Below, in pieces: positions 4,761 to 56,229 of a stretch of 64,000 bases of DNA (position 1 is the first letter of the stretch; each line of letters begins with the position of its first letter). This stretch comes from an uncultured virus (IMG/VR IMGVR_UViG_3300049576_000013) (lineage: Duplodnaviria > Heunggongvirae > Uroviricota > Caudoviricetes), in IMG/VR virus record IMGVR_UViG_3300049576_000013; one strand, 5' to 3'. The translations under genes were made by a program, and so were the position numbers. The notes below the pieces were generated by a model. The model ran no database searches. It was not told the origin of the DNA and was given only the letters and a program-made list of their open reading frames with translations.

Positions 4761-4833
4761 CCGACCCGCTAACCCCCCGCCCCCGGGCTCCCCTGGCCCC
4801 CCCCCCCTCCAGCTGGTACCCCAGGGCGCCCGG
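4761..4833. repeat. Inverted repeat copy B
   Basis: Reverse complement of 1-73. Confidence 0.9.
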
Positions 4834-10569: not shown

Positions 10570-10849
10570 CGACGACCCCCTTCGCATCAGGTCTTCCCCG
10601 CTCGACTTCCCCCCCCACACCTGGCCGCGTCTCGCCGACACATCTTCTCGATTCGGTTCTTGCCCGACTGTCCGCGACGACCCTGTACCAACCGTATCGA
10701 CTACGCCACCCGTCCCCGCTACTGGCCGACTCCTCGCTCCCGGACCTTGCGACTCCGACTGCCCCGCTCTTCTCGCGCCCCTTCTACCCGACAACTCAGC
10801 TCGCGCCGTCACTTGACGACGACCCCCCCCGGTCCTAGTCCCACCATTC
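10568..10849. repeat. Pentamer-periodic array 1: about 9 units of GAC+(NNNYC)5-6, candidate guide-RNA array
   Basis: e.g. gac ttccc ccccc acacc tggcc gcgtc tcgcc gac; gac tgccc cgctc ttctc gcgcc ccttc taccc gac. Confidence 0.85.
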
Positions 10850-10863
10850 ACAAAGGAGGTTCC

Positions 10864-11430
10864 ATGAAGCAGCTTGTCTCCCTACGTGATGTCAACGGAG
10901 AGATGCGCAAGGTCATCGAGGAGGAACTTGATCGTCACGCAGATGCTCCGTGGGTGGCGGCGTCAGTGGCCGTAGACCTGGTCGAACGGCTCCGCCAGGA
11001 CGACCCCGAGCTACTGAACAAGTGGCTGGAGCACCAGGCCGTCCGAGTGGTCCGTGAGGCCATCGTCGGCCTGGAGGGAGCGCGGCGGCAGCAGGCCAGG
11101 ATCAAGGCCGAGCGGCGGCGCCCCCCGAGCGTCTTCGCCAAGGCGTTGGAGCAGTACGAAGAGACCGGGCGGAGGGAAACCCTGGCGGCCTGGCTCGATA
11201 CTACGTTCATCGTCACTGCCAAGAACCAGCGCAAGACCCTCGGTGACATGGACCAGGAAGACCTGCGCTTCGCCGCCGACAGCTACACCCGCAGCGCCCG
11301 CGCGCTGGGGATGCAGGCAGCGTTCCTCCGCGTCCTCGCCAGCCGCGTCGGAGCCAAGAGGGTGTCCGAGGTGTTCGACGAGGAGGAGCTATCTCGCATC
11401 TGGCGTGAACTTGACCGCATGGGCGACTAG
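10864..11430 (+). CDS. 188-aa alpha-helical protein between arrays 1 and 2 (candidate accessory of the Cas7-like system)
   Basis: AAAGGAGG SD at end of array 1; high GC3; no recognisable family. Confidence 0.8.
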   Translation: MKQLVSLRDVNGEMRKVIEEELDRHADAPWVAASVAVDLVERLRQDDPELLNKWLEHQAVRVVREAIVGLEGARRQQARIKAERRRPPSVFAKALEQYEETGRRETLAAWLDTTFIVTAKNQRKTLGDMDQEDLRFAADSYTRSARALGMQAAFLRVLASRVGAKRVSEVFDEEELSRIWRELDRMGD

Positions 11431-11896
11431 TCGTTCCTCTCCCATCCCTGACCGACATTCCATGTCCCATCACACCGTTACGACTGCCCGGCTACGGGCC
11501 CCATCCCTCCGAGGCTACTCCGACTATCCACTTCAGAACGGGTCATGCCTCACCGATTCGACTCGGCTGCTCGGCACCGGTCCCCCCCGATCCGTCCTCG
11601 ACCAACCAGTCCACCCCTCTCCCAGTTCGACTTACCGCGCCTGACCGAGTCCGACCGAGTCTGTTCCGACTATGCGCTCCCGTTCATCCCGACATCGACT
11701 ACGCGTCACCGCCCGATCCATGCCATGTCCGACCAGTCTCCCCCCACCCCCCCTGCCCGGCTCTGCCCGACGACTCATTTCACGTCGAGCCGTCTCTGTT
11801 CGACTTGTCACTCCCGATCCGACCATCCCGAGGTCGACTGCCCGGATCAACTCTGCTCTCCCTGCTCCGACAACTCTGTCCAGGTCCACTCAACCC
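11424..11896. repeat. Pentamer-periodic array 2: about 14 units of GAC+(NNNYC)5-7, directly upstream of the Cas7-like gene
   Basis: e.g. gac attcc atgtc ccatc acacc gttac gac; gac tatcc acttc agaac gggtc atgcc tcacc gattc gac. Confidence 0.85.
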
Positions 11897-11915: not shown

Positions 11916-12704
11916 ATGGAAAGCATCTTCGCCGAGGCCCAAGGAAGGGCCTACCCGTACCGGTACGATGCCGAAATCTTCGTACCGATGCTGGTCGGCG
12001 GTGTGCCCTCGGACCCCAAGGTGGCCGAGGGTTGGATCCGCACCAAGGTGCAGGGCACCGAGGAGCGCATCCAGAACCTGATCGCTGAGACGATCGTGGA
12101 CCGTGGCGTATCTGCCGAGGAGGCGGTCAGGATCGTCAACGAGATGAAGAACCTGAACGGTTTCAAGCGCACCCCGGAGGGTGAGCTGTGCATCGAGGGT
12201 CGCCAACTCAAGGCGATGCTCAAGGAGGCCGTCTCGGTGGCCGCAGGTGCTGCGAAGATCAAGCAGACCGGCTGGGGCGTTACCCGCAAGTGGATCAAGG
12301 GATTCTTCCCGGAGCACGTCTTCGTGGTCGAGGGGATCGTCCCGCTGGGCGTCACCTCCCCCACCGGGATCCTCCAGAACTTCCCCCACACCCACAACGG
12401 GTCCTCCATCCAGTACCAGGAGTACGTCACCGACGTGAAGCTCAGCTTCACCGTCATCACCGACTGGAAGTTCACCAAGAAGGAGTGGGAGATGATCTGG
12501 ACCACGGCCGAGAAGCAGGGCCTCGGCTCCAGCCGCTCCCAGGGCTACGGCATCTTCTCCGTCACCCGCTGGGACGAGACCATCGACACCAGCGCCCTGA
12601 AGAACAAGTCCGGCGGCGCCGACGAGGATGACGACGGCTCCGAGGAGGCTCCGGTCGACGACTTCGTAGTGAAGGTGGGGCGCAGGAACAAGGCCGCCAG
12701 CTGA
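11916..12704 (+). CDS. Stand-alone RAMP/Cas7(Csm3)-like protein
   Basis: LCIEGRQLKAMLKEA resembles the RAMP PxIPGSSLKGxLR motif; C-terminal Gly-rich loop GLGSSRSQGYGIFSV; strong SD. Confidence 0.8.
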   Translation: MESIFAEAQGRAYPYRYDAEIFVPMLVGGVPSDPKVAEGWIRTKVQGTEERIQNLIAETIVDRGVSAEEAVRIVNEMKNLNGFKRTPEGELCIEGRQLKAMLKEAVSVAAGAAKIKQTGWGVTRKWIKGFFPEHVFVVEGIVPLGVTSPTGILQNFPHTHNGSSIQYQEYVTDVKLSFTVITDWKFTKKEWEMIWTTAEKQGLGSSRSQGYGIFSVTRWDETIDTSALKNKSGGADEDDDGSEEAPVDDFVVKVGRRNKAAS

Positions 12705-18638: not shown

Positions 18639-18712
18639 AGCGGGATAGCGCAGCTCGGCAGCGCGCTGGGCTCATAACCCAGAGGTCACCGGTTCAAATC
18701 CGGTTCCCGCCA
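18639..18712 (+). tRNA. tRNA-fMet (CAU), initiator type
   Basis: Full cloverleaf; 1:72 A-C mismatch; CTGGG-CTCATAA-CCCAG with three G-C pairs; TTCAAAT T loop. Confidence 0.95.
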
Positions 18713-18767
18713 CGTCAGGCGCAGCTCGCCTTAACCAAATAGACCCGGTTCGGACGGGCACCCAAAA

Positions 18768-18801
18768 GCAAAGGCCCCTGGTTCACGCCAGGGGCCTTTG
18801 C
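18768..18801. terminator. Bidirectional hairpin terminator
   Basis: GCAAAGGCCCCTGG / CCAGGGGCCTTTGC between convergent units. Confidence 0.8.
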
Positions 18802-18812
18802 CATGTCTGGAC

Positions 18813-20357
18813 TCAGAACGGCCAGGTGCCGTTCTGGCCGTGCTCCAGTAGGGGCACCATCTGGAACCCCTTGTCAGTCAAGCCACCGAACGTCCAGCGG
18901 TTGTCAGTGCCAGCGTCGCCGCCGTAGCGGTAGCCGGCCAGGTTCCAGGTGTACACCGGGGTCCGGCTAGGAACAACGGAGCCGGCGCCACCATCGTGGT
19001 GCTGCTCGTCGGTGACCACCAAGACCCGGTCGTGCCCGTTGTAGAACTGCCGGGTCGCAGCGGCCGTGTACGTACCACCGAGGTTCGTGAACTGCCCCAT
19101 GAGACGAAGCACCGAGCCACCAGCCTGGTAGGGCACCTCGTGAGCGGTGCTGCCGTACTGGACCAGGGTGACCCGGCCCGGGTTACGTAGCGCCAGGGCG
19201 GCACCGAACAGGGCACCCACCTCAGCCCGCATCATGGTCGATTTGCTGCCCGTCGCCGGCATGAACATAGAGCCCGACCGGTCCACTAGGACCAGCGACC
19301 GGCCTGGCAGCTCCGGAATGTTCTCCACAGTCAGATCGAACGCCTTATGCAGGGCCTGGCTCCAGCGCACACTGGCCACCGCCTTGTAGGCGGAGTAGAA
19401 CCGGAACGGGAACTGGCGTGACCGTCGCACCTGCCACGGGTCGGTGAGCTTCGTGGTGACCTGCTGCACCGCCTCCTCGGAGATCCCCGCCTGATCGAAG
19501 TTACGCAGGTTCCGTAGCAGGGCCATGTACCCCATGGACGGGATCAGGGCCTCCCACAGCTTCGCCTTCGACACCTTGCTGCCAACCAGGGACAGCGCGT
19601 CCTCCCACGTCATCCCCGCCTCGTGCAGTGCCGAGGCGGACAGGGCCAGCTCCGGCTCCGAGGCAACGTCCCGTCGGAACGCAGCGTTGGCCTGGAGAAC
19701 GTCCAGCTGACCGGTGAAGTCAACCTCGCGGCCATGGCGCCGAGCCAGGGCCAGCTCGAACAGTTCACCCTGTCCAATCTGTGTAGCCACCGGATGGGTC
19801 AGTTCGATCACGTCACCGAACCGGAAGCTCTTGGAGTCGGTGTCGTATTTCAGCAAGCTTCGCTGGTTGTACAGGTTCACAACGGCGTCAGCGACGCCAC
19901 GCTTCACCGGCTTGGGAATGGATCGGCCATAGGTGCTGGTCCAGTAGGCCAGCGCCTCACCCGGCTCATCAGCCCGCTGAAGCACGTCCCGCACAATGGC
20001 GCGGGAACCCGGCACTTTGGCCTTGACCATGGCCCGAGCCGCCTCCAGAGCACCGACTAGGGATGCGGAGCGCATGTTGGCCTCGTTGCGTAGCCACACC
20101 AGGAACCGGGCCATCCACTGAGGATCGGAAACGGCCACAGCGCGGATCAGCTGGGCGTAGCGGTCGTCGCGAGCCTTGGCCTTCTCGTAGAAGGTGTCCT
20201 CCTTGACCATGTTGGATACGGCCAGGAGGAACAGTTCGGACTTGGCGTCGCGAGCGAAACCGGGGGCACCCTCATGGGTGCGAGAGGTGGCCAGAACATC
20301 GGTGACGAGGGGCGCCTGGGCCACGATGCGTGGCCGCCCTCGATTGAACTTGGACAT
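18813..20357 (-). CDS. rsr: Ro60/TROVE-vWA ribonucleoprotein (Rsr)
   Basis: THEGAPG, ELFLLAV...TFYE, RADEPGE, MGYMALLRNLRNF, SRQFPFRF, VLVDRSGSM (MIDAS), VVTDEQ. Confidence 0.95.
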   Translation of the reverse strand: MSKFNRGRPRIVAQAPLVTDVLATSRTHEGAPGFARDAKSELFLLAVSNMVKEDTFYEKAKARDDRYAQLIRAVAVSDPQWMARFLVWLRNEANMRSASLVGALEAARAMVKAKVPGSRAIVRDVLQRADEPGEALAYWTSTYGRSIPKPVKRGVADAVVNLYNQRSLLKYDTDSKSFRFGDVIELTHPVATQIGQGELFELALARRHGREVDFTGQLDVLQANAAFRRDVASEPELALSASALHEAGMTWEDALSLVGSKVSKAKLWEALIPSMGYMALLRNLRNFDQAGISEEAVQQVTTKLTDPWQVRRSRQFPFRFYSAYKAVASVRWSQALHKAFDLTVENIPELPGRSLVLVDRSGSMFMPATGSKSTMMRAEVGALFGAALALRNPGRVTLVQYGSTAHEVPYQAGGSVLRLMGQFTNLGGTYTAAATRQFYNGHDRVLVVTDEQHHDGGAGSVVPSRTPVYTWNLAGYRYGGDAGTDNRWTFGGLTDKGFQMVPLLEHGQNGTWPF

Positions 20358-20359
20358 GA

Positions 20360-20393
20360 ATGTGGCTCCTCCGTGTCGAGGGAGGAGCCACAT
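20360..20393 (-). promoter_or_regulatory. 13-bp perfect hairpin sequestering the rsr SD / Y-RNA terminator
   Basis: ATGTGGCTCCTCC-CTCGACAC-GGAGGAGCCACAT-TC-ATG. Confidence 0.75.
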
Positions 20394-20401
20394 CGTCAAG
20401 T

Positions 20402-20541
20402 GATGCCTGAGATCAAGTCGGCCGGGCGAACGTAACCGCGCTGCCAATTGCGCCACAGCCCCACAAGTGGGGCCGGTTGGACTCGAACCAACAACCTGTC
20501 CTTTACAAGAGGAAGAACTCCCAACCTGCGCACCAGGCATC
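20402..20541 (-). ncRNA. yrlA: YrlA-type Y RNA (Ro-binding stem plus circularly permuted tRNA module)
   Basis: 5' GATGCCTGGTGCGCA / 3' GACTTGATCTCAGGCATC stem; T arm GTTGG-TTCGAGT-CCAAC; loop-closed acceptor CGGCCCCA-CTTG-TGGGGCTG; D arm GCGC-AATTGGCA-GCGC; immediately upstream of rsr. Confidence 0.9.
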
Positions 20542-20552
20542 TGAAGTTGTGG

Positions 20553-20631
20553 CCCTCCCGAGATCAAAGTCGCCCGTCGGAATGGAGTCCATTTGCCTTG
20601 GAAGTATCCGCTGGGCTTCGCACCGGGAGGG
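20553..20631 (-). ncRNA. Second, shorter Y RNA (no tRNA module)
   Basis: CCCTCCCG-GTGCGAA...GACTTTGATCT-CGGGAGGG with the same Ro-binding motif as the YrlA. Confidence 0.8.
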
Positions 20632-42628: not shown

Positions 42629-45600
42629 CTACTGTTGCTTCCGCCGCATGAGCTGGCCGCGACGGTTCTTATCGTTCCAGATCTCGTCGAGGGCCGTGAT
42701 GGCCTTCTGCACGATCCGGTCGATCTCCATCTTGCCTTCCATGCTCTCGTGACGCTTGTTGTAAAGCCGGCGGCGGAGATCTTCACGTAGGCCCGGACCG
42801 CCCACTTGCCCACTGGCGAAGTCGTTCACAAAGTCCACTGCCATATCCAGCTCCGACTTGTCCGGGCCATGTTGCCCAGCTCGACTTCCACCCCGAGCCA
42901 ACGGGTTGTTAGCAAGGTCCACGACAAGGCGACGTAGTGGCTCCGGTGTTCCCTCAGGAAGCCGGGGAACATCCCGCTCTGGCGAGGAGATGTTGTCGAG
43001 TGCTCGCTCCAGCTTCTTCGCCGCTGCGTCAGGCAACCGCTCCTGGAGCTGTCGCAGAAGACGGATCATCCCATCCATACTGATTCGGCCCATAACGGCG
43101 TCAGTAGCTATCTTCCCAATCACATTTCCCAGCGGTTCACCATCCGCATCCAGGCGAACGTCGTCACCGAGCTGTCGAAGTAGCTGGCCAATCTCACCGT
43201 CCTGGTGGAAGTGGACTTCACCTGGCCGCCCACCCCACGTGTTCTCGATTAGTGGTTTATTGGACTTCTCGCCGGAGAACTTCTTGACCGGAGCAGCCTG
43301 ACGCACCTTGGCGCGCATCGGTGTCGCCGCAGCCTTCTTGGCCTGGTTGAAGGCATCAGCCACCGCGTCGTCAAGGTCAGCGAGCTGAAGTCCACGCACG
43401 TCTGGACGACCTGGAACACCAGCCACCCAGTGACGCTCCGTCTCACCCATGGTGCGACTGGTGCGCCCCTCCTCGACCTCCACGTTGGTGGCGTTAACTA
43501 GCGCCACCATCTTCCCGTCGGCGTCGTAGATGCGGTAGCTGGGGGACGGCGAGGAGGAGTCGCGTAGCCACATGGTGTGACCCTCGGGCAGGGACTTGGA
43601 CTCGACCTGGACGGCTGAGGGCGACAGTCCGCTGGGGCGAGCGACCGGTGTCTTGGCTGGGGCGGCAGCGGGCGTGTAGCGGTCGGCGATCTGACTGATG
43701 ATGTCGGCTTTGCGACGCCCGCTAACTCCATGCTGCGCGGCCAGGACACGGAGTTCAGGCATCAGGAGACCAGCCATGGCATCTTCAGCCTGGCGCCGGT
43801 TCTTGGCACCTTGAAGCCGCTCCATGGTCTCGTCCATCATCCGCTGCTTAATCTTGGCCAGCTCCGTCTCGACCCGCTGCTGGGCCGGCGGCGCAGCCTT
43901 AGCCGGGGCAGCCTTCTTGGCCGGGCGCCGCGTCTTCTTCAGGCGGTCGGCCAGAGCCTGCATCCGGTCGGCTTCGGCGTAGATGGCCTGCTTGGCGCGG
44001 GCGTTCCGCTCCAAAAATTCAGGATCGCGGTCACGCCCCGAGCTGTCTTGGCGGTTGTACTCACCATAACGAATAGCGCCCATGCCTCGATAAGCCTCAG
44101 CACGTCCCTCTAGCCAGCGACCAACAGCAGCCGGTGTGGGATTCTTCGGCAGATCGGAAACGGGTGCTCCAGTTAGCTTTACGGTCACTCGTTCCCCGTC
44201 AAGGGCCCTCTGGGCCTCATCTAACAAGTTCTTGGTCCATTGCTGACTTTCGTCCAGATCAAGACCTTCACTGATGGCGCGAATGTTCAACCCCTCCCCG
44301 CTGGCATCAACCTTCGGAGGGGGCGGTGGCGCGGCCTTCTTCGCGGCAGTCTTCTTGGCTGCCTTCGTTGCCATCTGTGACGCGCGCCGATCCAGCTCCT
44401 GCTGGGCCACCTTCTTGATGAAGCTGGAGAGGACTTCCCCCTTGGTGTTCCCCTCTGGTTCCGGGAACCCTGCCCGTACAGCTGCCTCTTTCAACTGCTC
44501 CGGGGTGGTGACCTCCAGTATCTTCTTGATGTCTGGACCTACGGTCTTCTCGATCTCGGGAAGGGTTACCTCTTCGTTCTTGAAGTAGTCACGCAGGAAC
44601 TCGGAAGCCCGCTGCTGGGCCTTGATAGCCCCCTCCAGCTTGGCTGCCTTGATAACCAAGCTCTGACGGTCAGCGGTGTCCAGCTCTCCGCGCAGCGTGG
44701 AGTCGATGTCGGCCAATTCCTCCTTGTTGAAGGAGATCTCCGACTCCATGCGCTGGATGCCCTCCTGCGGGGTGATCTTCCCGCTGGAGATGTCATCAAT
44801 GATCTCGTTGGTAGCCCGCTTCGGGGACCCGTCCCGCATCTTGATGTCGGCGTCGTCCCACGCCTGCTTGAACTCGTTCTTTCGAGGAGCGTTGTCGATC
44901 GGCGTCACCGTACGGCTCTCGAAGTCGCCAGCGGGAGGCTCCTCGGCGGCCTCGACGACGCTCTTGCTGAGTCGGATGTCCTCCCCGTCCCGCTGGAGCG
45001 TGAGCCCAGGACGGACGATCTGCACGTCCGCGCCTTGGCGGACCTTGCCGATCGCCTCGTGTTGCTTCGGGTCGAACTTGGCCCGGTCGCCGGCCTTGCC
45101 GTACGGGGTGATGCCTTCAAGGTCGAGCAGCTTGGCCATCTCGGCGCGGGCCTTGTCCCGGTCGCCCGACTCGATGGCGGAGATGACGGGGCCGAGGTCG
45201 AGCCCGCCGGTCGGGCGCGGTGAGGGGTCGTCGATGGCGATGTTGTGCCGGTCCTGATTACCGATGGAGATAGCGGCGTCGCGGTCCGCCTGGGTCAAGG
45301 CCGCCTGCTTGTTCTCCGGAACGACGCTCGTGCCGCGATCCTTGGCGTGCAGGCGCAGGATTGCTGCATCGATCTCGTGGCGGTTGGTGCTCTCGCCGAG
45401 TTCTTCGCGCAGGTCGGCAAGGGCCACCAGCTGCGTGTCGCCGGGCCGGGCCTTGCGCCCGTTGCGCGCCAAGACCGCTACGTAGGCCGCCCGCACACGG
45501 TTCTCGACGACGATGTCACGGTCCGCACCCCGTTCGGCCGCCGCACGCAGCCGGGACAGGACAGCCCGGTCTGACGCTCCGTTGTGCAGGATCTCGTCCA

Positions 45601-48523
45601 GCTCGCCGGCGGCAGTCGAGAGCTTGCGGGCTGAGTCGATGGCGGACTGACGGTCGCGGGCGGACTGCTCGAGGTCGCCAGCCAGGTCCTCGGCATCCTG
45701 GAGTTCGGCGAACTCGCGCTCGAGTTTCTTCCGCTCGGGCGAGGGACGCCGGTGCCCCGCCCCGGAGTCCTGGCGGTAAGCGAGGTTCTTCGCGAACCAG
45801 TCGCGCCGATCGTCAATGGACAGCCCCTTCGGGAGCTTGAGCTGGACCTCGCCGCCGCCTGAATACCGGCTGGCCAGCTTCGCCAACTCGCCGGCGTTGA
45901 GATCGGCGATCATGTCGCTGATCTTCTGCTGCCGCTCGGCGCGGTCAGCTCCACGGACGCCAGTCAGGCGCTCAACCAGCGCATCAAAGTCGGCCGTTTC
46001 GGGCTTCAATGGAAGCCCGGAGGAGCGCTTGGTGACGGACTGCTCCCCCAGATCTGGCACTACGACCAGGGTCTGCGACGGGGATAGACCAGCTACCCCA
46101 CGAGCACTCTGGTTGATGTTCTCGACCGGATTGCCTTGCTCATCGGTGCCACTGATCCGGATACGCCCGTTGGTGTCACGATCCACTGAGGTGATGGTGA
46201 CGATCTTGCCGCCAGTGCGCCGATTGGTGGGCTTGTTCTCCGGAGTGAGCCGTACCCGCATGCCCGGTTGAAGACGCCCAGCCGTGATCTTCCCGGCCGC
46301 AGTGCCAGGTGCCGCACCCGGAACGGCGACCTTGGCCGCCTTCTTAACCGGAGGCGCCTCGGGGACTCGTGGCTTAGCCCCCTCGGTACGCCGCCCCCGA
46401 GTCGACATCTCCTCCAGGATCGTGTTGATGAGCCCGTCCCGGCGCATCTTGTTGATGCTGGTGGCTGGGGCGATGTCGTTCTCTTTGGCGAAGGCGCGGA
46501 GGTCGGCGACGGTCGGCCTCTTGCCACCGAACAATTCCGTGATCTGCTGCTCTTTGTTGGTCGTCGACCCAGGCTCAGCTGGAAGGTCCTTGAGCCCTCG
46601 AAGCTCCTTCTTCAGCTGATCCTTGGTCATCCGGGAGAGCGGGATGCCACCTCGCTCGGCGGCCAGGCCACGTTTCTTTGCCTCGGCGTACAGCTCCGCC
46701 TTGGTCATCTTGTCCAGGTCATCCCCAGACTCGGGTGCCGCCTTCGCCGGGGAAGCCTTCTTAACCGGAGCAGCCTTCTTGGCCGCCGCCTTCCGTGGGG
46801 CCGGCTTTGTAAGCTGGTCGGCAACCCTGTTCAGGTGGTCGTCTTCGCCACGATCATTTCGAAGGCGCCGCGCCCCTTCTGCCCGGGAGATCCGCTTACG
46901 ACGGACCATGTCCATGACGACATTGAGGCCAGTCAGCTCAAACTGGCTCAGATCGCCCTCTTTGATGCCGGCAGCCTCTAACAGCGGCAGGTACACCTCG
47001 CGATTGGCAGTGTCGGCTTCCTCGTTACTTTCGGCAACCCGAGCGTTAGTGCGCTTGGCAGCGGCACGCCCTGTTTCGGCAGCAACCTCCCGGGATTGCT
47101 CCTGCTCCCGATCAACTTTCTGTTGCTGAGCATCTGTGGGCCGAGTCGCTGCTGCCTTCTTCGCGTTGCCTCGGTCCTGGCGCCGCTCCTCGGGCGTTGG
47201 CCTGATGCCGGGGGAGCGGCGGGCAGGCTTCTTCTCCTCGACTGGGGCCGGCAGGTTGTACTGCTCCCGGATCAGGTCCCGGAGTTGTTCCTGGGCACGG
47301 ATGTCATCAGCCAGTTCCTCATCACCCTGGCCAGCCTGGAGCTTGCGCTGGTTGACAGCAATGTCCCGCTCCAGCTCCCGGACCGAGTCTCGCGGGTCCT
47401 TCTTCCCGGTGGCGATGCCCTCGTAGGCGTCGTTGAACTCCTTGCGTCGCGACCCAGCCGAAGGCGCAGGGATGTTGGCCTCGCGCACGGCGTTGCGGAT
47501 GTCTACGATCCGTGGAGTCGGTGGCTCTGGCTCCGGTGTAGGGACTGTCTCTTGCCCTATTGCGGGGGCCGGAGCGGAACCGGGGGCAGGGCCACCGACT
47601 GCTCGTGACACCACTGGTTCAGTACGCGGCGGTGGGGTGCCCGGCGGTGCGGGCACCTGCTGCTGCCCAGCCCCCTGGGGCATAGCCTGCTGCCGGGCCT
47701 GCTCCCGCTGCGCCGCCTCCGCTTCGACCTGGGTGTCGGACTGGATCCGCATCTGGTTCTGCTGAGATTGGGTGACTTGGGCGACGCCAGCCTCACGCTG
47801 CTCCACGCCGGGCCCAGCGCCAGGGGCGGGGCGCCCGATCGGTTCCGGCGTCTCACCAGGTGTCCGGTCGGTGGCCACGGCCATGACGTAGTAGCCGCCG
47901 GCCCCGTCCGGCGTCACCTTGGTGATGCGGTACTCCTGGTCCCGGTCCAGGATCACTTCCCGGTCCCCGGGTCCGTCGCCGGGGATGATGGCCTGGGTGC
48001 CCTTGGGGACCGCCACAGTCATCAGGATGCCGGTGTTCTGCCCCAGTGGGGTGCCGATGTTGGTGGACCCGTAGCCCCGGTCCCCGATCAGCTTGCCGGT
48101 GAAGTCTTCGATACCCCCCTCATCCAGGCCCATGGTTTCGGGGGTGAGCCCGAACGCTTCCGGAGTCACACGACGGGACACGATGATGTCGTCCGGCAGA
48201 GTGACCTTGTTACGGTCCATCATCTGCACGAACTTCTTGGTTGACGCATCCATATCGCCGCGTCGCAGGGCCTGGTTCGCCGCCGGGTAGTCAGCGGCGA
48301 ATCGTGGCATGTCTAACCCGCCGCCACCTCGGGGCTTTCGGTTGAAGACGTACTGAGCCGCCTGTTGGTCGCTGCTGAACGTGCGGGGGTTGAACTTGGC
48401 CAGGATGTTGGTGATCGCGTCCACGACACCGGCGGCCATCTTCCACTTGCTACGGAAGCGGCCGTTCTTGTCGCGGGGGTGCAGCAGTTCCTCGCGAGTA
48501 CCCCACGAATCACCAAGTCCCAC
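42629..48523 (-). CDS. 1964-aa head-associated multidomain protein with N-terminal VIP2-like ADP-ribosyltransferase domain
   Basis: HPRDKNGRF N-terminus; NQALR...VSRRV...GYGSTN...VPKGT...DREVIL (R-S-E pattern); AAKKAAP linkers. Confidence 0.75.
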   Translation of the reverse strand: MGLGDSWGTREELLHPRDKNGRFRSKWKMAAGVVDAITNILAKFNPRTFSSDQQAAQYVFNRKPRGGGGLDMPRFAADYPAANQALRRGDMDASTKKFVQMMDRNKVTLPDDIIVSRRVTPEAFGLTPETMGLDEGGIEDFTGKLIGDRGYGSTNIGTPLGQNTGILMTVAVPKGTQAIIPGDGPGDREVILDRDQEYRITKVTPDGAGGYYVMAVATDRTPGETPEPIGRPAPGAGPGVEQREAGVAQVTQSQQNQMRIQSDTQVEAEAAQREQARQQAMPQGAGQQQVPAPPGTPPPRTEPVVSRAVGGPAPGSAPAPAIGQETVPTPEPEPPTPRIVDIRNAVREANIPAPSAGSRRKEFNDAYEGIATGKKDPRDSVRELERDIAVNQRKLQAGQGDEELADDIRAQEQLRDLIREQYNLPAPVEEKKPARRSPGIRPTPEERRQDRGNAKKAAATRPTDAQQQKVDREQEQSREVAAETGRAAAKRTNARVAESNEEADTANREVYLPLLEAAGIKEGDLSQFELTGLNVVMDMVRRKRISRAEGARRLRNDRGEDDHLNRVADQLTKPAPRKAAAKKAAPVKKASPAKAAPESGDDLDKMTKAELYAEAKKRGLAAERGGIPLSRMTKDQLKKELRGLKDLPAEPGSTTNKEQQITELFGGKRPTVADLRAFAKENDIAPATSINKMRRDGLINTILEEMSTRGRRTEGAKPRVPEAPPVKKAAKVAVPGAAPGTAAGKITAGRLQPGMRVRLTPENKPTNRRTGGKIVTITSVDRDTNGRIRISGTDEQGNPVENINQSARGVAGLSPSQTLVVVPDLGEQSVTKRSSGLPLKPETADFDALVERLTGVRGADRAERQQKISDMIADLNAGELAKLASRYSGGGEVQLKLPKGLSIDDRRDWFAKNLAYRQDSGAGHRRPSPERKKLEREFAELQDAEDLAGDLEQSARDRQSAIDSARKLSTAAGELDEILHNGASDRAVLSRLRAAAERGADRDIVVENRVRAAYVAVLARNGRKARPGDTQLVALADLREELGESTNRHEIDAAILRLHAKDRGTSVVPENKQAALTQADRDAAISIGNQDRHNIAIDDPSPRPTGGLDLGPVISAIESGDRDKARAEMAKLLDLEGITPYGKAGDRAKFDPKQHEAIGKVRQGADVQIVRPGLTLQRDGEDIRLSKSVVEAAEEPPAGDFESRTVTPIDNAPRKNEFKQAWDDADIKMRDGSPKRATNEIIDDISSGKITPQEGIQRMESEISFNKEELADIDSTLRGELDTADRQSLVIKAAKLEGAIKAQQRASEFLRDYFKNEEVTLPEIEKTVGPDIKKILEVTTPEQLKEAAVRAGFPEPEGNTKGEVLSSFIKKVAQQELDRRASQMATKAAKKTAAKKAAPPPPPKVDASGEGLNIRAISEGLDLDESQQWTKNLLDEAQRALDGERVTVKLTGAPVSDLPKNPTPAAVGRWLEGRAEAYRGMGAIRYGEYNRQDSSGRDRDPEFLERNARAKQAIYAEADRMQALADRLKKTRRPAKKAAPAKAAPPAQQRVETELAKIKQRMMDETMERLQGAKNRRQAEDAMAGLLMPELRVLAAQHGVSGRRKADIISQIADRYTPAAAPAKTPVARPSGLSPSAVQVESKSLPEGHTMWLRDSSSPSPSYRIYDADGKMVALVNATNVEVEEGRTSRTMGETERHWVAGVPGRPDVRGLQLADLDDAVADAFNQAKKAAATPMRAKVRQAAPVKKFSGEKSNKPLIENTWGGRPGEVHFHQDGEIGQLLRQLGDDVRLDADGEPLGNVIGKIATDAVMGRISMDGMIRLLRQLQERLPDAAAKKLERALDNISSPERDVPRLPEGTPEPLRRLVVDLANNPLARGGSRAGQHGPDKSELDMAVDFVNDFASGQVGGPGLREDLRRRLYNKRHESMEGKMEIDRIVQKAITALDEIWNDKNRRGQLMRRKQQ

Positions 48524-51552: not shown

Positions 51553-53443
51553 CGAGCAAACCTCGCCGTCGCAGGTACTCGCCGAGGAGCTGAACGGTGT
51601 GAGCCTGCTCCCGAATGAGCAGCGTGAAGCAGTAGTCGTGCAGAGCGTCCTTCAAGGCACCTGTGTCCAGCTCAGGGTCGACCGCCTCGGCCAGGACCGA
51701 TAGGTGGTCCCAGGCGCCGTCGAGGAGCTGGGTGGCGTGCGGCGGCGTAGCCACCTTGATCCGGGTGTGCAGTTCGTAGGCCGGCACATCAGGCCAATGG
51801 TTGCGGTTGGCCCGGTTGAGGAGGCGGCGGCCAGCCCGCTCCAGGGCACGGAGGCAGGTGGCGTTAGCCAGCACGAAGGTGTTTACTGATGCCGGCACGG
51901 AGGCGCTGGCCGTGACGCCAGAAGGTACGTCGGGGGGGCCGCCTGGGGCGTTTTGAGCCTCCGTGGCCAGGGGCATGGGGCCACCTGCGGTCGGGGAAAT
52001 GCCAGTGGGTGGCGCTGGCGGCGGCGGTGGCCCCGCCCCTGGCGTTCCCGGCGCCGGTGCAATGACGGTGTTGGCGGGCAAGATTTCTTCGGTGTACCCA
52101 GCCACCTTTCGAACGGCTGGGTTCTGGAGTAGGGCCGGGTCCCGGAGCATCAGCTCGCGGGTGAACCGCATCAGGTCTTCTTCGTCGCTGGGTGCATCGC
52201 TGATCTTGTAGTCACCAGCGAGAAGCACGGTCTCCCGACTAACCAACCCCTTCTCGTACATCTCCCGGGTGTCCTTCAGGCGCTCCGGGCGCACGGTGAG
52301 GGGGGCAGTGTCATACCAGAAGACGTACTTGTCCGGGTTCTCCTTGATCGCCTTCAGGGCCGGTTGCAGGTACGCCGTGGTGAGTGCGTCACAGATCCGT
52401 ACCATGAGGGGGACAATGTGGACATTGATCTGCCCCTCGACGATTTGCCAGGCTCCCCAGTGATTCGCCTCCCCGGCCCCCGTGAGGATGGACGGTTCAA
52501 TGTCCATGGCCAGGGCCAGCCGCCGGATCGCCTCAGCGCGGAGGTCGAGTGCCTGACGAGACAACTCCCCGCCGAACTGCACCAGGTTGATCTTCCCCAG
52601 CGCCTCCATCGGCATCTCCATGACGATGGGAGCAATCCCAGCCGCAGTCCCTTCACCCTGGAGTGAGGCGGACCCAGTCCGCACCAGGATGTCAGTCAGA
52701 TTCTCTGAGGCGGACAGGGTGGGGTCTTCCTCGCTGAACGACACCTCCTTAGGGATCGGCAGCAAGCCAGCGGAGAACAGCCGGGAGTCGATCTGGGCGA
52801 ACACGTAGCGGGTCAGTCGCTCGATCTCCCACAGCATCGGAAGGCCAGCCTTGGTGGGCGAATCAGCCCATAGTGCCCGGCGCGGATGGGGGGTCCACAC
52901 CCGGATGATCAGATCCTTGCGAGGGTCAATCATCTCCTTGGTGCCGTCCGGATTGAGTTGCGCGATGTTGGAGCCCCACCGCTTCAGTTCAGATGTGGAG
53001 ACGATGCTCCACTCATCGGACTCAGGGTTGCTGGCACTGCGTCCGACGATGAAGGCTTCCCCGGCCACGCTCAGATTGATGCCGAGCATCCGCAACGCCT
53101 CGGCTTTGGCCGGGGGGCCGCCGAACAAGGTGTCAGCCAGGCCGGCCACCTTCTTCTTGGTGACCTCCTTCTGCACCCGGCCGTTGTCGTCTACCTCGGC
53201 CACATAGATACGGACCCGGGAGCACGCTGAGCCCACCCAGTTGGCAATGAACCGAAGCTCGCCCACGATGTCGTAGAGGCGCCACGCCTCGGTCTGCCAG
53301 GTGTCGTCACCGAACTTGTACTGGCGCCAGGCCAAGCCATCCATCTTGATGCGAGCAGCCGAGGCAATGAGGCTTTTCGGTGCCTCGTGGGGCAGTGGCT
53401 CCTCAACGGGCTCAATCTCTCGACGCCTGCCCCAGCGGGCCAT
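51542..53443 (-). CDS. Portal protein
   Basis: WQTEAW..YD.VGEL, RVW.PHP, AI.RLA..MD, NHWGAW. Confidence 0.9.
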   Translation of the reverse strand: MARWGRRREIEPVEEPLPHEAPKSLIASAARIKMDGLAWRQYKFGDDTWQTEAWRLYDIVGELRFIANWVGSACSRVRIYVAEVDDNGRVQKEVTKKKVAGLADTLFGGPPAKAEALRMLGINLSVAGEAFIVGRSASNPESDEWSIVSTSELKRWGSNIAQLNPDGTKEMIDPRKDLIIRVWTPHPRRALWADSPTKAGLPMLWEIERLTRYVFAQIDSRLFSAGLLPIPKEVSFSEEDPTLSASENLTDILVRTGSASLQGEGTAAGIAPIVMEMPMEALGKINLVQFGGELSRQALDLRAEAIRRLALAMDIEPSILTGAGEANHWGAWQIVEGQINVHIVPLMVRICDALTTAYLQPALKAIKENPDKYVFWYDTAPLTVRPERLKDTREMYEKGLVSRETVLLAGDYKISDAPSDEEDLMRFTRELMLRDPALLQNPAVRKVAGYTEEILPANTVIAPAPGTPGAGPPPPPAPPTGISPTAGGPMPLATEAQNAPGGPPDVPSGVTASASVPASVNTFVLANATCLRALERAGRRLLNRANRNHWPDVPAYELHTRIKVATPPHATQLLDGAWDHLSVLAEAVDPELDTGALKDALHDYCFTLLIREQAHTVQLLGEYLRRRGLLDGA

Positions 53444-53748
53444 TAGCTACCCCACTTGTTCAGAAGACCAGCCACCATTGAGGCAGCGGGGATCGCCAGT
53501 ATGGCCAACACGATCCCTTCCAGCGTCCAGCCGGTCATAGCAAGGACGGCCAGCGGCATGACGAGGAGGCTGATCCAGATGGAGGTGCACCACGGGCAGT
53601 GGGCGAAGTAGGCAGTCTTCGATTCTTCACCGAATCGCTTCACGACCCAACGTCGGATGCCGATCGTTATCTCGTCGTCAACGAGGAGACGCGTCAGTCG
53701 CGCGACTGCGAGCATCCCTACAAGGAGCGATACGATCAACACCCCCAT
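53443..53748 (-). CDS. DUF1360-like membrane protein
   Basis: ARLTRLLVDD.IT, CPWC.S.W. Confidence 0.75.
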   Translation of the reverse strand: MGVLIVSLLVGMLAVARLTRLLVDDEITIGIRRWVVKRFGEESKTAYFAHCPWCTSIWISLLVMPLAVLAMTGWTLEGIVLAILAIPAASMVAGLLNKWGS

Positions 53749-53828
53749 AGCCTAAAGGTGAAACTCCTGCAAGGGGTAGACGCCACTTAGGTGGGGACTT
53801 GCCCCCCAGGGGTCCCTGTGCTAGTGTC

Positions 53829-53856
53829 TGACAGGTCACGTTCCCCTGACCTGTCA
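53829..53856. terminator. Hairpin bounding array 3
   Basis: TGACAGGTCA-N8-TGACCTGTCA. Confidence 0.55.
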
Positions 53857-54281
53857 CATCCGCCCCACCCTCTTCGATCCTGCCCGGATCCGACAACCCA
53901 TACCCACCCCGTATCGAGCCCGACAACTCCGACTATCCGGCTCACCTCGCCACGACCTCTCTACCCAGCCCAGTTCGACTGCCCGACGCTGGCCCCCTCG
54001 TTCCAGCTCCTTAACGACACGCCGGACCACATCTGACCCGGCCGATTGACCGACCGCACCACACCAGTCCTCTTCGACGTCTCAGGCCGTTTCCACTCAG
54101 GCCGACATACCCACTCCGCCCAACTCACCTCGATTGACTTGCCAGTTCACGTCGCCCCGTCGCCCGGCCGACATGTCATCTCGCTCCAACTCAGACCGGA
54201 ACAGGCCCGACGCACCAGCCCCACCCCCTCCAATCCGATCCGACAGCTCATGCCCACCCGCGCCCACTCAATACAAACGAC
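53856..54281. repeat. Pentamer-periodic array 3: about 12 units of GAC+(NNNYC)5-7, orphan copy downstream of terminase
   Basis: e.g. gac gtctc aggcc gtttc cactc aggcc gac; gac gcacc agccc caccc cctcc aatcc gatcc gac. Confidence 0.85.
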
Positions 54282-55704
54282 TAAGGTCATACGCACTCTG
54301 GTCCATATGCAACTCGTAGCGGCTCGGATCACCGAGCCGCATTTTTTTGCGCTCACCAGACATGAGATGGATCGAGGCGTGGACGAGGGCGTCCATCCGG
54401 TCGGGACTCTCCCGAGTAGACGTGGGGTCATAGAGAACCATCTGATTCTCCAGTTCATCCCAGGTGCCCACCATGTGCAGGCGCCCTTGCTCTGAGCGCA
54501 TAGCCACTGGTTCAGCTCGTGTCTTCTTGCCGTGCTTGGCGTGTACCGGCTTCATCGGTGGCGTGGTACCGCGCGGGAACATCCCCAGCTCCACGCACTC
54601 CTGATAGGCGTCTTGAAGCACCTCGTGGAGGTACCGCTTCCCTAGGTTCTCCTCATATACCAGGATGTCGGCGGCGAACTCAGCCACCGCCCGCCAGGCA
54701 GCCAGAGCCGCTGCTCGTCCTGACTCACTGACAGTTCGATCGGCCAGGACGTAGTGGTGATTGTCCTTGTCCCGGCCCACCACCACGATGCCGGTCTGGG
54801 CATCTTCACCGGTCAGGTTGGGGTCCATTCCGACCACGGTGGAGATCAGCACCTCGGGCACTGTGTTGAGCCGATACTTAACCAGGTCCATGCGCCGGAA
54901 CAGTCCACCGCCGGTCAGCTCCAGTAGCTTGCCGTACAGCTCCTGCTCGCCCAGCGCCGTGCCGGCGTAGCGGATCTTCAGCTCGGCCAGGGCGTGCTTG
55001 GACAAGTTGACTGCGTTGTCGAAGGTCGAGCCAGTGATGATATGAATGGTGCCGTCATCCCGGGCCAACCACTCCATCAGGAGTTTGATCGGTTTCGGTG
55101 TGGTGGTGACGAAAGCACGGGGGTGGTCGTTGATCAAGTCAGCTCTGAGGGCTGGCAGCAGGCCCTCATACCAGGTCTCGTAGGGCTTGACCCACTTCGC
55201 CATCTCGTCACAGAGCACACCTGCGGCGTTGTACCCACGTCCCGTATCTGGATCATCCGCCCCCTCCAAGTAGATCTTGGAGCCGTCAGGGAACAGGACC
55301 ATGGGGCGAGGACTCTGCTTGTAACGGTGATCGATGCGGCGCCGCTGAAGAACGTTCAGGATCCCACTGGGACCTTCGGCATTGATGGTGCGGGCATCGG
55401 CCAAGGTGTCGGCGACCACCAACCACTCCGTGGGCACACCAGACCGGTCATAGGGGTGGCGGAGGACTCGGTCTACAACCCATTCGGACCCAGCCCTGGA
55501 CTTCCCAGCCCCTCGGCCAGCCATGTAGAGGTAGACCAACTCGTCACCCTCGGGCGGTATCTGCTCCGGCCGGGCGACGTACCACCATTCTCCCCGGTTC
55601 ATTTCCATGAGCGCTTGTTCAGGGAGTCGACTGATGAACTCGACCCGCTCGGAGACAGGGAGCATGGCCAGCCGCTGCTTCATGGACAGGCCCATGGCGA
55701 TCAT
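54268..55704 (-). CDS. terL: Terminase large subunit
   Basis: Walker A AGRGAGKS, Walker B VLCDE, TTTP, GMDP, SPDRMDAL; start approximate. Confidence 0.95.
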   Translation of the reverse strand: MIAMGLSMKQRLAMLPVSERVEFISRLPEQALMEMNRGEWWYVARPEQIPPEGDELVYLYMAGRGAGKSRAGSEWVVDRVLRHPYDRSGVPTEWLVVADTLADARTINAEGPSGILNVLQRRRIDHRYKQSPRPMVLFPDGSKIYLEGADDPDTGRGYNAAGVLCDEMAKWVKPYETWYEGLLPALRADLINDHPRAFVTTTPKPIKLLMEWLARDDGTIHIITGSTFDNAVNLSKHALAELKIRYAGTALGEQELYGKLLELTGGGLFRRMDLVKYRLNTVPEVLISTVVGMDPNLTGEDAQTGIVVVGRDKDNHHYVLADRTVSESGRAAALAAWRAVAEFAADILVYEENLGKRYLHEVLQDAYQECVELGMFPRGTTPPMKPVHAKHGKKTRAEPVAMRSEQGRLHMVGTWDELENQMVLYDPTSTRESPDRMDALVHASIHLMSGERKKMRLGDPSRYELHMDQSAYDLSRLY

Positions 55705-55812
55705 GTTAAGCCGATTCTTGTCAGCCCCCCCCTCTAGGCTCTGTCTCGGTGGGTCAGGGAGGGCTACCCTGTTGGGCATCTCCCCTCGGATCTGCCAGGA
55801 AGAAGGACTGCC

Positions 55813-56229
55813 TTGTCGCAATCGGACATCGAACTGGGGCGCGAAGTGGTGCGGTCCGGGAAGCTCCAGGAGCTCCGATCGCAGCTGGGACTGAGCCGCA
55901 ACGCCATGGCGGAACTGCTTCACACCGCTGCCCTGACCTACACGTCCTGGGAGAAGCGGCCAGAGACCAACCTGTGGCCGAGCACTGCCGAGAAGGTGGG
56001 TCGCTTCTACCGAGTGGCCACGGAGGAGATCTTGCTGATGACTCAAGCCGGTCTCAAGGTGAACGAACTGATGCCGTTCCATCTAGTGGCCACCCAGCTA
56101 GGACTGCCTCAGGAGACCCTGTTCGGAATGTACCGAGATGGACTAATTGAGGCCGTGGACGGAGGGATTCTGGGGCTGTGGGTGGAGCGGGAGCAGTTGG
56201 AGCGCTACCGAGCGGGCGTGTGGACCTGA
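55813..56229 (+). CDS. XRE-type HTH DNA-binding protein
   Basis: LQELRSQLGLSRNAMAELL...YTSWE. Confidence 0.75.
   Translation: MSQSDIELGREVVRSGKLQELRSQLGLSRNAMAELLHTAALTYTSWEKRPETNLWPSTAEKVGRFYRVATEEILLMTQAGLKVNELMPFHLVATQLGLPQETLFGMYRDGLIEAVDGGILGLWVEREQLERYRAGVWT

Follow-up and report, generated by a model that had tools for sequence, protein, structure and literature searches.

What would place an array of short repeats at the very end of a terminase gene, 42 kb away from the Vipr-like gene of the same phage? The window, that is, the whole stretch of 64,000 nucleotides analysed here (IMG/VR record IMGVR_UViG_3300049576_000013), holds most of the genome of a tailed phage. It is a soil actinophage, the capsid and lysin of which have Actinoplanes phage phiAsp2 as their nearest isolate (40%). 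We propose with good confidence that array 3, the array beside terL, serves a VIPR-like system as a self-contained guide cassette, C-rich, provided with its own promoter and used by the distant Vipr. The features on which the argument draws are as follows.

10571..10845, + strand: array 1, 9 units, filling the gap 5' of vap
10864..11430, + strand: helical accessory gene, vap candidate, conserved (phmmer)
11425..11896, + strand: array 2, about 14 units, filling the gap between vap and vipr
11916..12704, + strand: Vipr-like stand-alone RAMP (P0001), putative effector, from its AlphaFold2 fold and a profile match
53443..53754, - strand: DUF1360 gene (Pfam DUF1360)
53799..53827, + strand: predicted housekeeping-sigma promoter of array 3 (TTGCCC, 17 nt, TAGTGT, TGn extension), recognised by eye
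53829..53856, no strand assigned: inverted repeat, perfect over 10 bp with a loop of 8, a GAC anchor in each arm
53848..54269, + strand: array 3, 13 units of GAC+(NN-n-Y-C)4-8, putative guide precursor
54268..56082, - strand: terminase large subunit, terL (Pfam Terminase_6N and 6C)
54319..54348, + strand: intrinsic terminator, 9-bp stem and T7, within the antisense strand of terL

Regarding the array itself, an earlier note on this DNA had described about 12 units that share their grammar and absolute orientation with arrays 1 and 2, and this is borne out. Thirteen units of 23-44 nt were parsed, each consisting of GAC followed by 4-8 pentamers and occasionally one added C, and they are preceded by an 18-nt stub at 53830. 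Twelve strict GAC(NNNYC)>=3 anchors are present, compared with 0.37 on average and at most 3 in 2000 dinucleotide shuffles. Position 5 of the pentamer is C in 72/74 cases in array 3 and in 103/107 in arrays 1 and 2 together, while positions 1-2 approach 2 bits in all three arrays. The same grammar can be observed across 824 units of the family, in which the information content of positions 1-2 is 2.0 bits, with C at position 3 in 44%, a pyrimidine at position 4 in 86% and C at position 5 in 92%. Unit lengths follow 5n+3 in 384 of these 824 units and 5n+4 in 218. Taken over all arrays, the NN that directly follows GAC is skewed, TA, AA and TT making up 49% there vs 13% at later positions. Arrays 1, 2 and 3 are the only clusters of GAC-led pentamers in the window, where no run of five GGYNN was found. 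CRISPR-type direct repeats of 20-40 nt with spacers were not reported at the array, its only fixed element being (C)GAC. Four overlapping ORFs cross array 3, none with a Pfam match, and a protein-coding role was rejected.

Two details of the boundaries need correction. The array had been said to overlap the last codons of terL, which is overstated: its in-register end at 54269 meets only the stop codon (54268-54270), or reaches one pentamer more, and the GAC at 54279 is followed by no in-register pentamers. It had also been described as bounded by the perfect 10-bp hairpin at 53829-53856. The hairpin exists, but 10 distinct hairpins of this kind occur in the window, only about 6 bp of it would fall within a + strand transcript, and the closest relative, G001, has a different leader at this place. 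Since the sequence is not kept in G001, the hairpin was ruled out as a conserved tail, although it may stop read-through from terL.

The putative effector places the locus among VIPR-like systems. P0001 has no Pfam or PHROG match. Its AlphaFold2 model finds its best fold matches in type VII Cas7 and Csm3 (Z 11.1, rmsd 4.3, 142 aligned), and a diverse profile of the family (A4) matched a profile of SUSP1-type Vipr (A3) with a probability of 89.8 and an E value of 1.8e-6 over 132 columns; the narrower profile A1 gave no significant match to SUSP1-type Vipr. P0001 is thus a remote homologue of SUSP1 Vipr with a Cas7-like fold, and it is on these two properties that the system is called VIPR-like. 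In SUSP1 Vipr, D177 and W178 are described as binding two guanines (10.64898/2026.04.26.720927). In the alignment of the P0001 family, these two positions stand opposite small residues, while R179 stands opposite the invariant R207. The homologues of P0001 number at least 1,415 proteins, and those borne on genomes are mostly from Actinomycetota (12/17 records). The phage locus is minimal, comprising vipr and vap in the order vap-array-vipr without a CRISPR array or cas operon. The vap candidate gave phmmer matches in 65 of the 101 loci searched, and its model had no fold match in the PDB. Among the 50 ORFs scanned there was no cas operon, the sole Cas4-type match being weak and located in a phage exonuclease 44 kb off, and an Rfam scan returned tRNAs alone and no other RNA family.

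Arrays apart from vipr are not confined to this phage. Further distal arrays lie 12-51 kb from vipr in relatives, some of them several kb long and several with a -10-like box upstream (G041, 92-94 kb and 146-151 kb; G048, 23 kb and 81-85 kb; G018, 0.3-1.7 kb; G011, 50.5 kb and 55.3 kb). A homologue of P0001 (33%) followed by a sense C-rich GAC array is also found in the isolate Microcystis phage Mae-JY09 (PP395641.1, L491:3240-3640), which offers a cultured model of the array system.

The window holds other features besides. A perfect 73-nt inverted repeat with G runs (1-73 and 4761-4833) flanks a 4.7-kb segment and may reflect inversion, a terminal repeat or an assembly effect. Within that segment, an ORF at 810-1904 is made of 15-nt (five-residue) repeats and lacks a Pfam match, and an element of 43-84 nt with an internal inverted repeat recurs at 1680-1763, 2214-2297 and 2779-2821, probably as early promoters or operators of the - strand. 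A TROVE (Ro60-like) gene at 18639-20567 is convergent with a tRNA-Met gene, and a head-module protein of 1964 aa encoded at 42629-48523 combines an ADP-ribosyltransferase domain with Rho_N/SAP-like repeats.

Which strand of array 3 is transcribed is the central question for its interpretation. The local context had been taken to yield a G-rich RNA by read-through from terL. This was not confirmed, the array having a + strand promoter box and a terminator of its own. Transcription is predicted to start near 53833-53834 and would give a C-rich RNA of about 515 nt (53834-54348). The corresponding promoter in G001 reads TTGCAC-N17-TAGTGT, and a TAGGGT or TAAGCT box occupies the same place in G006, G011, G013, G014 and G017; boxes of these types fit actinobacterial housekeeping promoters. 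All seven arrays at the terL site are C-rich antisense to terL, and each, as judged by eye, is preceded on its C-rich strand by a TA(G/A)NNT box, which is kept over terL identities of 64-100%. Promoters were found here by eye or by a loose pattern; a scan with the E. coli consensus gave nothing at either locus. The terminator lies 50 nt past array 3 (one found vs 0.3 expected in shuffles), its stem being kept in G001 and not seen in G011, G013, G014 and G017.

Loci elsewhere in the family point the same way. Arrays accompany vipr in 56 of 75 loci: in 51 they are C-rich only in the direction of vipr, in 2 they run both ways and in 3 they are solely inverted. The inverted arrays (L060, L061 and L065) have -10-like boxes on the C-rich side. 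In a tally of 100 arrays, in which the classifier puts some operonic arrays in the non-operonic class, the loose -10 pattern preceded the C-rich end of 26/63 non-operonic arrays vs the G-rich end of 10/63 (Fisher p 0.003), and the respective counts for operonic arrays were 4/37 and 2/37. The small residues opposite D177 and W178 of SUSP1 Vipr count for the C-rich strand as well. The tally of G-U wobbles, at 2 for the C-rich strand and 1 against, favours neither strand.

The main alternative is that the G-rich strand serves as guide, with terL read-through producing a (GRN-NN)n RNA whose 3' end the hairpin would cap, on the pattern of type II VIPR. Several observations suit it. Such an RNA would resemble the consensus NNNGG/NNNNG named in 10.64898/2026.04.26.720920, the hairpin sits at its 3' end, and the G-rich strand folds more stably than shuffles (z -3.0, compared with z 0.7 for the C-rich strand). 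A scan found no U-tailed terminator that would halt terL read-through at array 3, and a mismatch between guide and target at L147, C vs T, fits a wobble of the G-rich strand. However, arrays 1 and 2 would then need antisense promoters, and a -10-like box stands on the G-rich side of only 2 of 37 operonic arrays; the 51 of 56 loci with arrays in C-rich sense only, the + strand boxes at 7/7 terL-site arrays and the lack of conservation of the hairpin also argue against it. In L065 a terminator cuts off read-through ahead of the G-rich strand, although the scan gave no terminator in L060 or L008. We consider this alternative unlikely. The functional strand, which the earlier note had left undecided, leans clearly to the C-rich + strand, antisense to terL, on the signals in the sequence and on the relatives.

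A divergent -10 box of its own, TAGGCT (53754-53749), precedes the DUF1360 gene, six bases ahead of a GTG at 53742, and this puts the cassette between two late units. This gene is probably leaderless, and the spacing from -10 box to start, judged by eye, is the same in L002, L004 and L005. In the region 53740-53790, DUF1360-portal probably has its leaderless late promoter, accompanied by an upstream motif that is conserved and common to terL relatives.

Comparison of relatives shows that the insert between terL and DUF1360 is optional, variable and tied to the Vipr-like system, as follows from the occupancy of the site, the differing units of G001 and the empty site of G005. Among 22 terL relatives, 6 have an array there (G001, G006, G011, G013, G014 and G017, with terL 64-94% identical). 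The array occurs in 5 of the 12 vipr-positive relatives and is absent from the other 7, and of the 10 without a vipr match it occurs in 1, namely G001, a 29% fragment. In G001 the flanks are kept and the units differ, though terL is 94% identical. The proposed check, that the insert should be missing where the Cas7-like gene is missing, came out as predicted in G005, the sole complete vipr-negative relative and hence a control of a single genome, which has neither gene nor array.

It is very unlikely that array 3 goes unused as a guide, either as a relic or as an array-derived DNA or antisense element for packaging or control of terL. Three of its units gave no target when tested, it adjoins terL, the last 80 nt (3') of the predicted transcript are antisense to terL, and 7 of 12 vipr-bearing terL relatives do without an array at the site, all of which would suit such a role. 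Nevertheless, the grammar of array 3 is as strict as that of arrays 1 and 2, the content in G001 differs despite 94% identity of terL, and the promoter box is kept at terL identities from 64 to 100%. An array absent from most relatives is not required for packaging, and the ORFs across it have no Pfam match.

How a C-rich guide would be read can be approached through units of relatives. In homologous units, NN is kept better than positions 3-4 (67 and 59% vs 26 and 25% background), and the units common to different phages (29 pairs vs 4.9 in controls) likewise keep NN while positions 3-4 vary. Four conserved units were searched in host genomes, and 3 gave convergent targets when NN was read with a 1-nt skip on the wobble base. 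Unit 1 found matches in 44 out of 151 Nocardiopsis-family genomes (control 3), and the seven rmrA-like loci examined encode HELGHLVMH of HTH + Peptidase_M78 genes that score as RmrA, matched in antisense with the skip on the wobble base. Unit 2 matched 15 of 51 Nocardiopsis genomes (control 0) in YTAQGFEY of DUF2075 helicases, in sense. Unit 3 matched 3 of 301 Streptomyces genomes (control 0), again in sense, in a repressor-like gene beside an integrase, that is, in an integrated element. A unit of another phage, which had played no part in picking the loci, matched a second site 14/14 in all three of these integrated-element loci. The fourth conserved unit, with 1 of 121 genomes, gave no convincing target. 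Furthermore, a unit of L020 matched 18/18, with skip 1, the Walker A region of a terminase-like gene, a rival terL without a Pfam match, in L019. GAC was unmatched to target flanks in the cases examined.

Pooled searches were less telling. When 1250 units were compared with 2.85 Mb of DNA from related phages, neither an excess of skip-1 matches nor a wobble bias was seen; a smaller search gave 84 skip-1 matches vs 67+-5, with other rules also above their controls. Readings of positions 2-3, 1-3 and 5-1-2 with skips 0-3 had no clear winner in the local set, and the code of NN with skip 1 comes from the host-genome searches, other skips having been tried in local sets. A distal unit of G018 gave unrelated matches only.

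Targets in both orientations point to double-stranded DNA. Binding of mRNA instead, as by type III and VII Cas7, is the least probable reading. The top fold matches are type VII Cas7 and Csm3 and two targets (terL and rmrA-like) would be complementary to mRNA if the guide is C-rich, but three others (the DUF2075 helicase, the repressor-like gene and the second site in the same integrated element) are oppositely oriented and NN usage fits codon positions 1-2 equally on both strands (log-likelihood -2.83 and -2.84).

Some of these targets may belong to host defence. Nuclease-DUF2075 proteins are treated as Nhi-like defence, and RosmerTA as a system with a Zn-peptidase antitoxin, in 10.1101/2022.05.11.491447. 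No match to RmrT was found beside the two rmrA-like genes examined, and for this reason they are not called RosmerTA. Two points qualify the defence reading: genes of the HTH-M78 type are also regulators of mobile elements, and a phage that silenced only the antitoxin would harm itself.

For array 3 itself, three of its 13 units (53848, 53977 and 54170, specifying 14-16 bases) were searched widely, and none (0/3) gave a convergent target; matches were 4 of 301 genomes vs 5 in the control, and 6 of 151 vs 2, scattered. Individual candidates were rejected. An IMG/VR match of unit 53848 places the skip on codon position 2, units 54170 and 53977 gave 119 and 109 matches mostly in low-GC viruses, the RLTGQSQ motif of a YqaJ-like gene was unsupported in 301 genomes, and unit 54136 matched G005 at 12/12, no better than chance. 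With 4-6 pentamers, a unit specifies no more than 8-12 bases. As the host is not identified and the units of array 3 specify 8-16 bases, the null result says little either way. The description of the insert as a dispersible trans-acting guide cassette is therefore upheld at the level of the family, by the 6/22 filled sites, the differing content and the guide-like behaviour in relatives; for array 3 no target was found, and its action in trans is a prediction.

The most coherent account of array 3 as a C-rich guide cassette would run as follows. The cassette lies where two late transcription units meet, back to back with the promoter of DUF1360-portal; its own promoter would yield the RNA of about 515 nt in the same sense as arrays 1 and 2, as the sequence signals and relatives suggest. 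By analogy with SUSP1 VIPR, Vipr made 42 kb off would coat this RNA with one subunit per pentamer, gripping the n-Y-C trinucleotide and exposing the NN bases, and each GAC would reset the register and open a new, separate guide with 4-8 pentamers. A unit may best be read as GAC-NN-(nYC-NN)n-nYC, so that two held trinucleotides would meet at each border. Following the code computed for relatives, the guide would read two of every three bases of double-stranded DNA and pass over the wobble base, presumably blocking transcription of the bound gene; resident prophages, rival phages and defence genes of the host would be likely targets. In this account the grammar, the orthologous cassettes, the RAMP fold, the homology to Vipr and the code in relatives are observed, whereas we infer that the C-rich strand is transcribed, that guides are separated at GAC and loaded in trans, and that they silence.

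Comparison with known systems places the cassette within a broad definition of VIPR, which fits through a RAMP homologous to Vipr, a minimal locus, NN pentamers and, at the level of the family, a 1-nt skip. According to 10.64898/2026.04.26.720920 and.720927, type II VIPR of Escherichia phage SUSP1 likewise has a phage-borne stand-alone RAMP with an accessory gene, pentamers with hypervariable NN, a 1-nt skip on the wobble base, and targets on both strands in rival elements and their regulators. Differences are also evident. The Vipr here is only remotely related to that of SUSP1, and the scaffold is GGY in SUSP1, compared with a C-rich n-Y-C on the predicted transcribed strand. SUSP1 guides have 9-16 repeats and a pseudoknot tail, whereas 4-9 pentamers stand here back to back, opened by GAC and without a 3' tail per guide; against the 9-16 GGY/NN repeats and structured 3' tail per guide by which type II is defined, array 3 has 4-8 pentamers and no tail between units, and it thus falls outside type II. 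Guides of relatives also match chromosomal defence-like genes, a difference from the SUSP1 system as far as the texts consulted go. Where the consensus is given as GGY/NN "or related", the G-rich strand fits NNNGG/NNNNG and the predicted transcribed strand reads NN-n-Y-C.

A further likeness is to VIPR "staggered arrays" (fig. S18 of 10.64898/2026.04.26.720920), in which guides are also back to back with a register shift, the end of one being the start of the next. Compared by figure legend, their consensus NNNGG/NNNNG is the reverse complement of the scaffold of array 3, and the family of array 3 may belong to this staggered type, shown perhaps on the opposite strand. Solo or orphan vrRNAs, in the accessible text of 10.64898/2026.10.15.759431, are similarly guides apart from vipr that act in trans, as is predicted here. 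They belong to vipr-null satellites or phages hijacking the protein of a rival, whereas this phage has its own vipr (11916-12704) and a multi-guide array at a fixed site of the late region. Non-canonical VIPR repeat clusters, as presented in the part of 10.64898/2026.10.21.760802 available, resemble it in that Vipr-like proteins lie next to 5-nt repeats built on other fixed trinucleotides (GAC/NN, CAC/NN, WGT/NN and TGH/NN, about ten or more repeats); GAC-punctuated n-Y-C, a strand call and targets were not found in that part. No text on C-rich or GAC-punctuated guides was found in the available literature, and preprint figures and supplements may contain the family. Only tentatively do we go further and suggest a distinct actinophage type of VIPR, with pyrimidine-rich guides cut or phased at GAC, own-promoter cassettes spread far, and a programmable counter-defence that would silence resident prophages, rival phages and, through conserved motifs, host defence genes such as RosmerTA-like peptidases and Nhi-like DUF2075 helicases.

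Array 3 is most likely a real distal guide cassette of a VIPR variant, and a C-rich one. The distal cassette is the more ordinary part of this finding, because guides acting in trans have already been described. If the reading is true, the scaffold of such guides can be C-rich, the mirror image of GGY, and strand calls that rest on analogy may be mistaken across a family of at least 1,415 proteins. Guides would reach down to 12-18 read bases and be packed without tails, which would suit multiplexed silencing tools for actinomycetes. Moreover, guides of relatives would aim at host defence-like genes, a class of target absent from the VIPR literature to the extent available, and the variable bases would then amount to a list of host defences written by the phage.
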